A stretch of 61,705 nucleotides of DNA, the filler included, from Bdellovibrionota bacterium (GTDB taxonomy: Bacteria; Bdellovibrionota; Bdellovibrionia; Bdellovibrionales; JAEYZS01): assembly GCA_963169515.1 (NCBI GenBank). It is 8 parts of 8 records of this genome, joined end to end, with 100 filler letters (N's around TTAATTAATTAA, not from the genome) between each part and the next. Parts side by side here need not be neighbours in the genome. Positions count along the whole stretch, not along the records: positions 57,905 to 61,705 come from CAUJEF010000022.1; 7 more parts are not named here. One strand, 5' to 3'. Below, piece by piece: positions 60,001-61,705 of this stretch. Positions within the stretch are counted from its first letter, which is position 1. The number at the start of each line of letters is the position of its first letter. The position numbers are program-made.

Positions 60001-61705
60001 TCTTTTTTCACATTTTTTACGCTCCCCGCTGGCGCAAGGTCTTCATCGTTCGTCAAATAATTAAAAAACACCATCGCTGGTTACCGCTGGCGCAGAGTCT
60101 TCTAATTTATCTCAATAAATTAAAAAAACACCACCGCTGGTAGCATGGTCTCAGTACCTGCTACCACTATCTGTTTGTCTCCAGACAACTTATTGAAAAA
60201 CACTTTTTTACATCAAAAACATCACTCGACGCCACGGCCCGCCGGCACAAAATCTTCATCCGAACGCATACGAAAGATCAGGAAAATTCGTAAATTTGCA
60301 ATCGATATTAAAACCTGAAACATGTTGAACACAATAGAAATAGACAGAAGCAACCTGACCATAATGGGGGTTAAATTTTCCGACTTGAAAACATTGGAAA
60401 GCACAGCGAATGCTTTAGGGAGCAATATGTTTGAAGGTTTTATTCCAACACCGAAAGGAATTGAAATAATACGCGACTATGTGACGGGGAAAATTTCATT
60501 GAGTGAATTGCTGACATTTACTAAAGAAAAAGCCTATGTCTGACGCTTATAAATATATAGACCCTGACTACTCTTATACTGATCCTGAAACAGGACTATT
60601 AAGAAATTTACAAGACATCCCCGCTGGCACAAGGTCTTCATTGTTCGTCAAACAATTAAAAAACACCATCGCTGCTTTCCACGTGCGCTACTGCTGGTGC
60701 GATATGCAGTCGCCCAACATACTGTCGAACGTCCTTAAAGAGGGCGATTACACCTCGCTTTAAGTTGTGTGTTTTCTCATTCCCCAAAAAAGCTTATATT
60801 TGCATCAATAAAACTGTTTTGACATGGCAACGGTACTAAAAGTCAGCATAAATGATCTGAATAGCCAATTTTTCTACGACTTAGGTCAACAAATTTCAGA
60901 TACCGACGAGATCGAAATTCGGATACCTGAAAAAAAATCAAAGATCGAGATTTTTTCAGATGCCGACTTTTGGCAGGTTATCAGCCTTTTTGATTGGTCG
61001 AAGGAAGCATCAGACGAGATTATGGCCCCTGCGATTAAGGAATTAGCGGGTATGCCGGTAGTTAATATCTATCTTTTCGCCGACAAATTATCCGAAAAAT
61101 TGTACCAGTTGGACACTCGTTTGCATGGCGAAGCGTATTTAAAGAACGAAAGCGACGACTACTTATCGGTTGATGACTTCCTGTATATCAGGTGTGCTGT
61201 CGTTGCAGAAGGGAAAGCATATTTTGACAAGGTACTTGCAAATCCGTCCGAATTTCCTGCCGACCTTAGTTTTGAACCTATATTAAATCTACCTGACCAG
61301 GCCTACGAGCTTAAAACCGGAAGGACATTTGATTATTTTCCTACGCTTAGTTATGAGACTTACAGCAATAAAAAAGCTTGGGATTAATTATGCCGGATAA
61401 CAACTCTAATCACGATATGAAACCGCACCATCTTTACGAAATTATTGATAAAGAGGGTGAAGACGTTTTTAAATACGGTATTAGTTTTGAACCTATTGGC
61501 AAAGATGGTATGTCAGGTCGTATGCGAAAACAAATCTCATTTCTAAATCGCATCTTCGAATGGGCGCGTTTCTTTGGTCGAATCATCATTTTTGACATAC
61601 CCGGAAAGAAGGCTGCACGTGAAATAGAAACGAAACATATCAAAGATTATGAGGAAAAGAATGGCCGAAAACCTAAAGGCAATGTGAGATACTGAAAATT
61701 GTCAC

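Follow-up and report, generated by a model that had tools for sequence, protein, structure and literature searches.

In the main-text passages of Zhang et al. (2012) that bear on Tox-URI2, the immunity families listed for this toxin domain are Imm9, Imm12, Imm39 and Imm44, all of them alpha+beta proteins, and these metal-dependent nucleases are described as apparently absent from classical toxin-antitoxin systems (PMC3482391). According to the available sections of a report on Burkholderia gladioli, the Tox-REase-5 nuclease family (TseT/TsiT) occurs both as a secreted effector and as a toxin-antitoxin pair, with an antitoxin-like immunity protein (bioRxiv 10.1101/835710). A free Tox-URI2 protein of 113 aa follows an RHS gene and has its immunity gene downstream (PMC8867033), and the available sections of that paper and of bioRxiv 10.64898/2026.07.13.738213 name no DUF4240 partner. 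DUF4240 was absent from the literature searched, whose scope left most subscription papers aside (variants of the term gave only Plasmodium gene names), and from the supplements of PMC13288982, PMC11148199 and PMC10790787. No description of the module reported here was found in that literature, including the available text of PMC11980606. The module is real, conserved and apparently undescribed, the 2012 survey having been compared through main-text passages, while its alignment and neighbourhood files may bear on novelty.

The window, a 61,705-nt stretch of DNA from a bin assigned to Bdellovibrionota, carries the module on contig CAUJEF010000022.1 (C22), with the following features:

60824..61387, plus strand: predicted antitoxin gene, 187 aa, acidic (pI 4.4), with an N-terminal antitoxin-type domain and DUF4240
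60824..60931, plus strand: N-terminal domain of the partner, residues ~1-36, outside the Pfam DUF4240 match and recognised by profile search, context and profile-profile comparison
60962..61309, plus strand: DUF4240 (PF14024) match, residues 47-162, helical on to residue 186; putative toxin-neutralising domain
61390..61695, plus strand: free Tox-URI2 nuclease gene (predicted GIY-YIG/URI fold), 101 aa, basic (pI 9.4), without a trafficking domain
Product of 61390..61695: Tox-URI2 key residues Y16, K28-Y29-G30, R44, Q48, E80 and N98
60795..60802, plus strand: putative promoter -7 element TATATTTG, 21 nt 5' of the start codon, matching TAnnTTTG

Pfam assigned DUF4240 to residues 47-162 only of the 187-aa ORF (E 6.2e-22) and Tox-URI2 to residues 6-92 of the 101-aa ORF (E 1.8e-24), and no other family in either protein at E 0.1 or better; export, trafficking or repeat domains were not detected on the toxin by Pfam. 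The toxin ORF opens with ATG at 61390, after an intergenic gap of 2 nt. A second copy lies on the minus strand of another contig (C6; 3435-2860 and 2856-2548 in contig coordinates) with a 3-nt gap, and neither family has a third copy elsewhere in the genome. The survey's finding of a two-gene module in two copies was borne out by the coordinates and Pfam matches of both ORF pairs and by the 55.6% and 55.4% identity of their proteins, but its claim that the copies share no nucleotide match was not, as a weak DNA match exists (64.8% over 454 nt, E 1e-15). Its description of the toxin as free-standing rather than polymorphic also held, the 101-aa protein being Tox-URI2 only and belonging to a dedicated two-gene module across loci.

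Eighty loci were kept from 237 genome matches; all are titled Bacteroidota, mostly Saprospiraceae, and the best toxin match among them is 97% identical. In 79 of the 80, a Tox-URI2 gene of ~101 aa has DUF4240 directly 5' of it and in the same orientation, and the toxin starts within 13 nt of the partner stop in 70 of the 76 loci where the distance was measurable. A census of 151 Saprospiraceae genomes, not selected by similarity apart from the seed genome, yielded 39 Tox-URI2 matches in 23 genomes, with DUF4240 upstream of 37/39 and downstream of 0/39; the other two matches were an RHS toxin of 2181 aa and a free toxin that is diverged. An adjacent pair was present in every census genome with both families (22/22), and ten census genomes carried two to five module copies. 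None was present in another 400 genomes sampled phylum-wide, so the module is narrow in range. No third conserved gene accompanied the pair, since 737 flanking ORFs fell into 628 clusters, the largest of which occurred in 6/82 loci. DUF4240 was unpaired in 23 of 61 census matches, seven of these 23 being module-clade genes of near-full length that had no toxin.

The motif TAnnTTTG, which we take to be the Bacteroidota housekeeping promoter -7 element, occurred within 100 nt upstream of 60/74 module loci compared with 164/3750 random windows (4.4%), and within 70 nt upstream of 54/74 module loci compared with 28/131 other genes of the same loci. Motif and spacing suggest that the pair is a two-gene operon with one promoter. 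Upstream palindromes were not commoner at module loci (7/74) than at other genes (12/131); a candidate operator palindrome was discarded when its excess over mononucleotide shuffles vanished against the upstream regions of other genes.

Partner and toxin distance matrices were correlated (r 0.85 for 69 pairs, with 0/2000 permutations as high), nearest-partner concordance was 51/69 against about 3 by chance, and 15 same-genome pairs were only 42-56% (DUF4240) and 52-64% (toxin) identical. Because linked genes co-diverge whatever their function, this co-divergence demonstrates a unit, not binding. In the three closest comparisons, dN/dS of both genes was 0.02-0.11, which denotes purifying selection, and that of the partner gene against its three closest relatives was 0.04-0.10. 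Eighteen loci picked as suspicious, among which assembly errors are possible, included four with a broken toxin and an intact partner, one with both broken, four with an apparently intact toxin and a frameshifted or partial partner, and two lacking DUF4240; in this mixed decay, a toxin-first asymmetry is not clean.

The toxin model (pLDDT 88) shows a three-stranded sheet with flanking helices. Its top five fold matches were I-TevI (1ln0; Z 7.7, rmsd 2.6 over 78 residues), PD-T4-3 (9u75; Z 7.7, rmsd 3.1 over 76 residues), a plant glutaredoxin N-terminal domain (Z 7.0) that we assume to have the GIY-YIG fold, the UvrC N-terminus (1ycz; Z 5.3) and T4 EndoII (Z 4.7), with Z-scores that are all below the tool's caution line of 8 and agree with Pfam. 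R44, E80 and N98 were kept in 69/69 toxins and Q48 in 68/69, none of these four being part of the search patterns, which included H14, Y16 and K28-Y29-G30; Y16 and G30 were also present in 69/69. These residues were mapped to the I-TevI catalytic residues by motif order, a correspondence that we assume. As judged by alignment and model, the toxin is a member of the GIY-YIG/URI superfamily with an intact active site, and it would be expected to have DNase activity and to be toxic.

Among cluster representatives, 649 Tox-URI2 relatives were returned by a profile search; they include RHS, HINT and PT-TG toxins whose C-terminal tip is Tox-URI2, and the start of the free protein coincides with the start of the RHS/HINT tip. 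The toxin ORF had at most 140 aa, its own ATG and no pre-toxin stub in 28/31 census loci. Module toxins form one side of an unrooted tree, apart from the polymorphic tips (90/88; 93% of bootstrap trees).

The DUF4240 part of the partner was modelled as helical to residue 186 (pLDDT 92), and we presume that this domain, well folded in prediction, differs from the labile tails of many antitoxins. Foldseek returned no match to the partner with E under 0.001 and the best Z was 4.5, with residues 1-39 barely covered; unclear fold matches of this kind do not show a new fold. Sequence matches of the partner to solved structures were limited to designed repeats and VapS (E 0.049), which were treated as chance. 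DUF4240 stands outside the immunity families listed for Tox-URI2, as the survey had noted: Imm9, Imm12, Imm39 and Imm44 gave no Pfam match to the partner, and its model is helical as opposed to the alpha+beta character ascribed to them in the main-text passages.

When distant tips, most of them polymorphic, were used for a scan, 80/85 metagenome loci were kept; two plasmid loci were then added, and 72 of these distant-tip loci had a downstream gene. In 59 of these 72 it belonged to one unnamed family, mostly of 210-260 aa, without a Pfam match in the 17 members scanned; the same family lies 3' of the 2181-aa Saprospiraceae RHS toxin (E 3e-38), and among the module flanks (82 loci) it was matched, weakly, by one ORF. 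Most polymorphic Tox-URI2 therefore use another, unnamed family. Six distant-tip loci carried a 145-aa bare DUF4240, without the N-terminal domain, 3' of the tip, and were counted as one event because they are 97-100% identical, while four others were partner-first modules. In one RHS locus (L252) the bare DUF4240 is 37 nt 3' of an orphan PT-HINT-Tox-URI2 cassette, which is the classical immunity position and one independent case; this downstream gene could be a non-cognate member of a cassette array. Bare DUF4240 aligns to partner residues 44-186 (probability 99.75%) and clusters with the forms found in modules, as orphans or fused to a helix-turn-helix, apart from nine unlinked DUF4240 (100/100), in a tree where one long-branched unlinked row fell inside the module clade. 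Unlinked DUF4240 genes lie among metabolic and other unrelated genes.

Taken with the coupling and co-divergence of the two genes, this one immunity arrangement makes it very likely that DUF4240 of the module clade neutralises Tox-URI2. The survey's view of DUF4240 as the neutralising partner is supported by gene order and domain evidence for one subclade, and was rejected for DUF4240 as a whole, which has an unlinked sister group. Its naming of the partner as a DUF4240 protein was correct but incomplete, as the protein is really a fusion with an antitoxin-type N-terminal domain.

In the monomer model, partner residues 1-36 form one helix and unpaired extended segments, in which we see, as an assumption of ours, a strand-helix-strand likeness to the Phd/YefM fold. 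Besides fusions, a profile of the N-terminal domain matched two ORFs, one of 74 aa that overlaps a YoeB gene (E 2.5e-5) and one of 92 aa located 5' of a PemK gene (E 0.014); two more short matches were fusions cut at contig ends. The family of the 74-aa ORF aligned with partner residues 1-54 (profile-profile probability 95%, E 3.9e-8), and the reciprocal search from it found a DUF4240 fusion (E 1e-5). In 201 genomes this family comprised four stand-alone genes, 4/4 overlapping a YoeB gene. With a mixed profile, 151 genomes yielded 28 matches, of which 20 were stand-alone genes, five were fusions, two were due to chance and one was a fragment. YoeB or ParE came next after 16/20 of the stand-alone genes (recognised by Pfam in 10 cases and by tblastn in 6, several of them broken), a fraction that is biased because the mixed profile contained the C-termini of YoeB antitoxins. 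In one locus (L229) an XRE helix-turn-helix replaces the N-terminal domain and is fused to DUF4240, 5' of a free Tox-URI2; another (L170) has both the helix-turn-helix and the N-terminal domain.

Judged by these profile comparisons, the N-terminal domain is homologous to the N-terminus of YoeB, ParE and PemK antitoxins, and the position of its homologs upstream of such toxins, together with its replacement by XRE in L229, leads us to read it as an antitoxin module. The stand-alone homologs matched PhdYeFM weakly and in the C-terminal half only (E 0.004 and 0.04), and no relative of the N-terminal domain was found by sequence among solved structures. The ESM Atlas contained no match to residues 1-48 and, for the stand-alone antitoxin, only unnamed Bacteroidota/Cyanobacteriota clusters. 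The domain probably serves dimerisation and perhaps autoregulation. Autoregulation through an operator was unsupported, there being no palindrome excess and the domain being slightly acidic (median charge -2).

The origin of the two contigs bears on which organisms own the module. C22 had no match in any of 60 relatives of the bin, and Tox-URI2 was found in 0/400 other genomes of the bin's phylum, so that the survey's statement that both families are absent elsewhere in that phylum stands for Tox-URI2. The module has up to 91% DNA identity to five Saprospiraceae-group genomes, which were picked because they carry it, and the AbiU part of C22 (78%) and a 59-nt piece of its IS5 (80%) also match in those five. 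Outside the module, C6 matches 4/121 Saprospiraceae genomes. A tetranucleotide model of 173 contigs placed C6 first and C22 second in Saprospiraceae likeness, and both scores were still above zero with the module masked, although the margins were small and the background included module homologs. Apart from two rows, the runs that contain C22 come from 12 studies in which sludge, biofilm, wastewater and bioreactors were sampled. The module is a conserved unit of Saprospiraceae (Bacteroidota) and close Bacteroidota, not of the bin's phylum. The Saprospiraceae matches and the tetranucleotide ranking make it likely that C22 and C6 are mis-binned, a contamination that the survey had itself allowed for; recent transfer into this bin is a possible alternative. 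The apparent first occurrence in the bin's phylum is therefore probably a binning artefact, and the hosts are common activated-sludge bacteria.

The rest of C22 contains the following:

57905..58772, minus strand: IS5 element with 20-nt terminal inverted repeats, transposase at 57914-58696
58775..59314, plus strand: C-terminal third of AbiU, cut off by the IS5 (PADLOC AbiU E 6e-48, positions 370-536 of 537)
60322..60543, plus strand: VbhA-like antitoxin, 73 aa (Pfam VbhA E 7.9e-5, below the curated cut-off)
60536..60763, plus strand: 75-aa ORF, probably a Fic stub, cut by the repeat after ~residue 28; no Pfam match
60618..60688, plus strand: dispersed imperfect repeat, 89% alike to its other copy at 60023-60093

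The Fic label is our assumption from the first residues of the ORF and from the fact that it comes after vbhA. Also encoded 5' of the module on C22 is a membrane protein that matches SH3 weakly. The IS5 and AbiU-like fragment reported by the survey were both found, the latter as the C-terminal part of AbiU. Mobile-element genes, said to lie on the contigs of both copies, are present on C22 (IS5) and were not recognisable in the C6 flanks (four flank ORFs in Pfam, two in PADLOC). A further copy of the repeat lies 15 nt beyond the contig end in contigs of three runs, so that the C22 module has a repeat on either side, and one run gave it roughly double the flank depth as well as a second upstream context. 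The repeat was not found beside other modules and was rejected as a sign of mobility in general. A single contig of an RNA library spans 60825-61394; that library, which may contain DNA, includes the IS5 too, and the contig was not counted as expression.

Considering all these observations, the module is probably an internal type II-like toxin-antitoxin system. Its second gene would encode a metal-dependent nuclease of the GIY-YIG fold that stays in the cytoplasm and corresponds to the C-terminal tip released from RHS/HINT polymorphic toxins; its first gene would encode the antitoxin, of which the acidic helical DUF4240 would bind and block the basic nuclease and the N-terminal domain would be a swappable module of YoeB, ParE and PemK antitoxins of the same phylum. 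If the antitoxin were lost or displaced, the free nuclease might cut the cell's own or invading DNA. The two genes would travel together when the module reaches unrelated sites, and there is probably no cross-talk between diverged copies of the same genome. Of the two roles that the survey had offered, toxin-antitoxin is supported by gene order, spacing and the antitoxin N-terminus, and abortive infection is without direct support.

An anti-phage guard or restriction-like system is an unlikely alternative, and one that concerns what the module may be for while leaving its anatomy as it is: the partner would hold the nuclease until a phage protein or host shut-off frees it, or modified phage DNA would be cut. 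The fold tie to the anti-phage GIY-YIG protein PD-T4-3 (Z 7.7), the AbiU fragment and vbhA-like pair on C22, scattered neighbours including AbiEii, PIN and HNH genes, and the patchy, multi-copy distribution would all fit such a role, but no model of PADLOC-DB 2.0 (2023 library) matches either module protein, no defence neighbourhood recurs across module loci, and viral contigs and phage records held no relative, hence no sign of prophage carriage. That RHS and HINT toxins have the Tox-URI2 domain as their C-terminal tip, that DUF4240 once occupies the immunity position and that a broken cassette-like pair lies 3' of the module on C6 could instead point to an orphan polymorphic-toxin cassette or a lysis-released bacteriocin, with the nuclease aimed at other cells and DUF4240 as plain immunity. 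We consider this highly improbable, as the partner comes first in 37/39 cases and the toxin in 0/39, the toxin has its own ATG and no pre-toxin stub in 28/31 census loci, RHS or secretion genes do not recur nearby, module toxins stand apart from the polymorphic tips (90/88) and the partner carries an antitoxin N-terminus.

The least probable of these readings is a selfish mini-element whose nuclease serves its own spread through homing-like breaks, the partner being a regulator or targeting subunit and not an inhibitor. It would account for insertion at dozens of sites that are unrelated, for near-identical modules that differ entirely in their upstream DNA, for the repeat-bracketed C22 copy with twice the flank depth in one run, and for a homing endonuclease domain as the closest fold; against it, no conserved ends, target site or repeat were found beside other copies, the nuclease has no DNA-recognition domain, and orphan partner genes outlive the nuclease.

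Returning to the toxin-antitoxin reading, its most likely origin would be a toxin-tip/immunity cassette that was reordered and whose immunity gene gained an antitoxin N-terminus. We put forward this descent from a polymorphic cassette by reordering and fusion tentatively, its direction being suggested by the domain fusion. With equal reserve, toxin-antitoxin or anti-phage modules of this kind may represent a domesticated interbacterial weapon whose immunity gene was fused at least twice, to the antitoxin N-terminal domain and to an XRE helix-turn-helix. The two ends of the possible transition are available (immunity gene 3' of a HINT toxin, antitoxin gene 5' of a free toxin), and so is the N-terminal domain that was added; a few small genes therefore offer a test of how polymorphic toxins and toxin-antitoxin systems are linked. 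If the reading is true, a GIY-YIG DNase would join the toxins of type II-like systems, from which the 2012 survey thought the fold absent, a function would follow for part of DUF4240, and an unnamed plug-in antitoxin domain would be common to YoeB, ParE, PemK and URI2 systems in Bacteroidota.

Compared with known systems, the module shares with polymorphic Tox-URI2, as presented in the main-text passages of the 2012 survey (PMC3482391), the toxin family with its motif Y, KxG, [EQ], and the start of their tip is that of the free protein; it differs from them in a toxin without a trafficking domain and in an upstream partner that is a helical DUF4240 protein. I-TevI, PD-T4-3 and the UvrC N-terminus resemble the module toxin in fold and in the order of catalytic residues, with a Lys and a Gln presumably standing where I-TevI has Tyr and His, whereas the module toxin has no attached DNA-recognition domain and possesses a dedicated partner gene. 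Like YefM-YoeB, ParDE and MazEF, the module is an antitoxin-first two-gene operon with an acidic partner and a basic toxin, is spread patchily in multiple copies and uses a shared antitoxin N-terminal domain; unlike them, it has a GIY-YIG toxin rather than a RelE- or MazF-fold RNase, and its putative neutraliser is a 140-aa folded domain, with no operator found. The nearest precedent, to judge from the available sections of that report, is TseT/TsiT (bioRxiv 10.1101/835710), in which one nuclease family likewise has two roles, but with another nuclease fold and another partner, and for which a passage from toxin-antitoxin system to effector was argued. The domain fusion of our module suggests the opposite direction, from immunity protein to antitoxin.

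On contig C22, the flank of the first module holds these features in the window:

57905-59314: IS5 element with 20-nt inverted repeats, adjoining an AbiU remnant (its C-terminal third)
59389-59853: protein of 154 aa containing a pair of hydrophobic segments
59884-60688: clustered copies of an imperfect dispersed repeat, core CCGCTGGC

In the best run the depth of the IS5 element was about 5x that of the module, which makes it multi-copy in its host. One copy of the repeat interrupts a probable Fic gene and another sits just past the contig end. Read contigs displayed several variants and joints of these repeats. 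The 154-aa protein gave a weak C-terminal match to SH3_3 (E 7e-4, below cut-off).

Downstream of the second module, on contig C6 of the source genome, a basic ORF interrupted by a stop is paired with a 98-aa acidic ORF (G000:C6, locus L001:1801-2398, minus strand). Neither ORF matched Pfam, and an unbroken version of the pair (160 + 98 aa) was found in the Saprospiraceae genome G851. The pair looks like a toxin-tip/immunity cassette.

Partner genes of other, longer architectures, and remnants of partner genes, were found among the collected loci:

L170:2055-3038: HTH_3, N-terminal domain and DUF4240, without toxin
L229:526-1338: HTH_3 and DUF4240, with toxin
L245:2972-3997: DUF4240 partner with an unclassified 140-aa extension; toxin split
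C101:8119-8217 and C117:12744-13551 (loci L091, L093 and L175): partner-gene remnants in genome G401

Genome G401 carries three whole modules in addition to these short, scattered remnants, which have internal deletions.

An unnamed family of antitoxins of 70-100 aa, encoded upstream of YoeB, ParE or PemK toxins, is widespread in Bacteroidota (L191:1501-1979, L197:1017-1611 and further loci L206-L209 and L293-L320), and Atlas clusters suggest its presence in Cyanobacteriota too. Its members have a common N-terminal domain and differing tails, and gave nothing above cut-off against Pfam. A separate candidate for an alternative antitoxin is a small, very acidic ORF (~52 aa) that precedes, and overlaps the start of, a diverged free Tox-URI2 of 115 aa lacking DUF4240 (L157:363-909, G880:C546).

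Directly downstream of 59 of the 72 distant, mostly polymorphic Tox-URI2 tips (loci L211-L292), we found a single unnamed family, mostly 210-260 aa long, including:

L237:4319-5002: example gene
L251:4378-5037: example gene
L156:1739-2458: further gene, from a locus outside L211-L292

A Pfam scan of 17 members returned no matches. It is likely to be either the principal immunity family for URI2 or a divergent version of one already listed.
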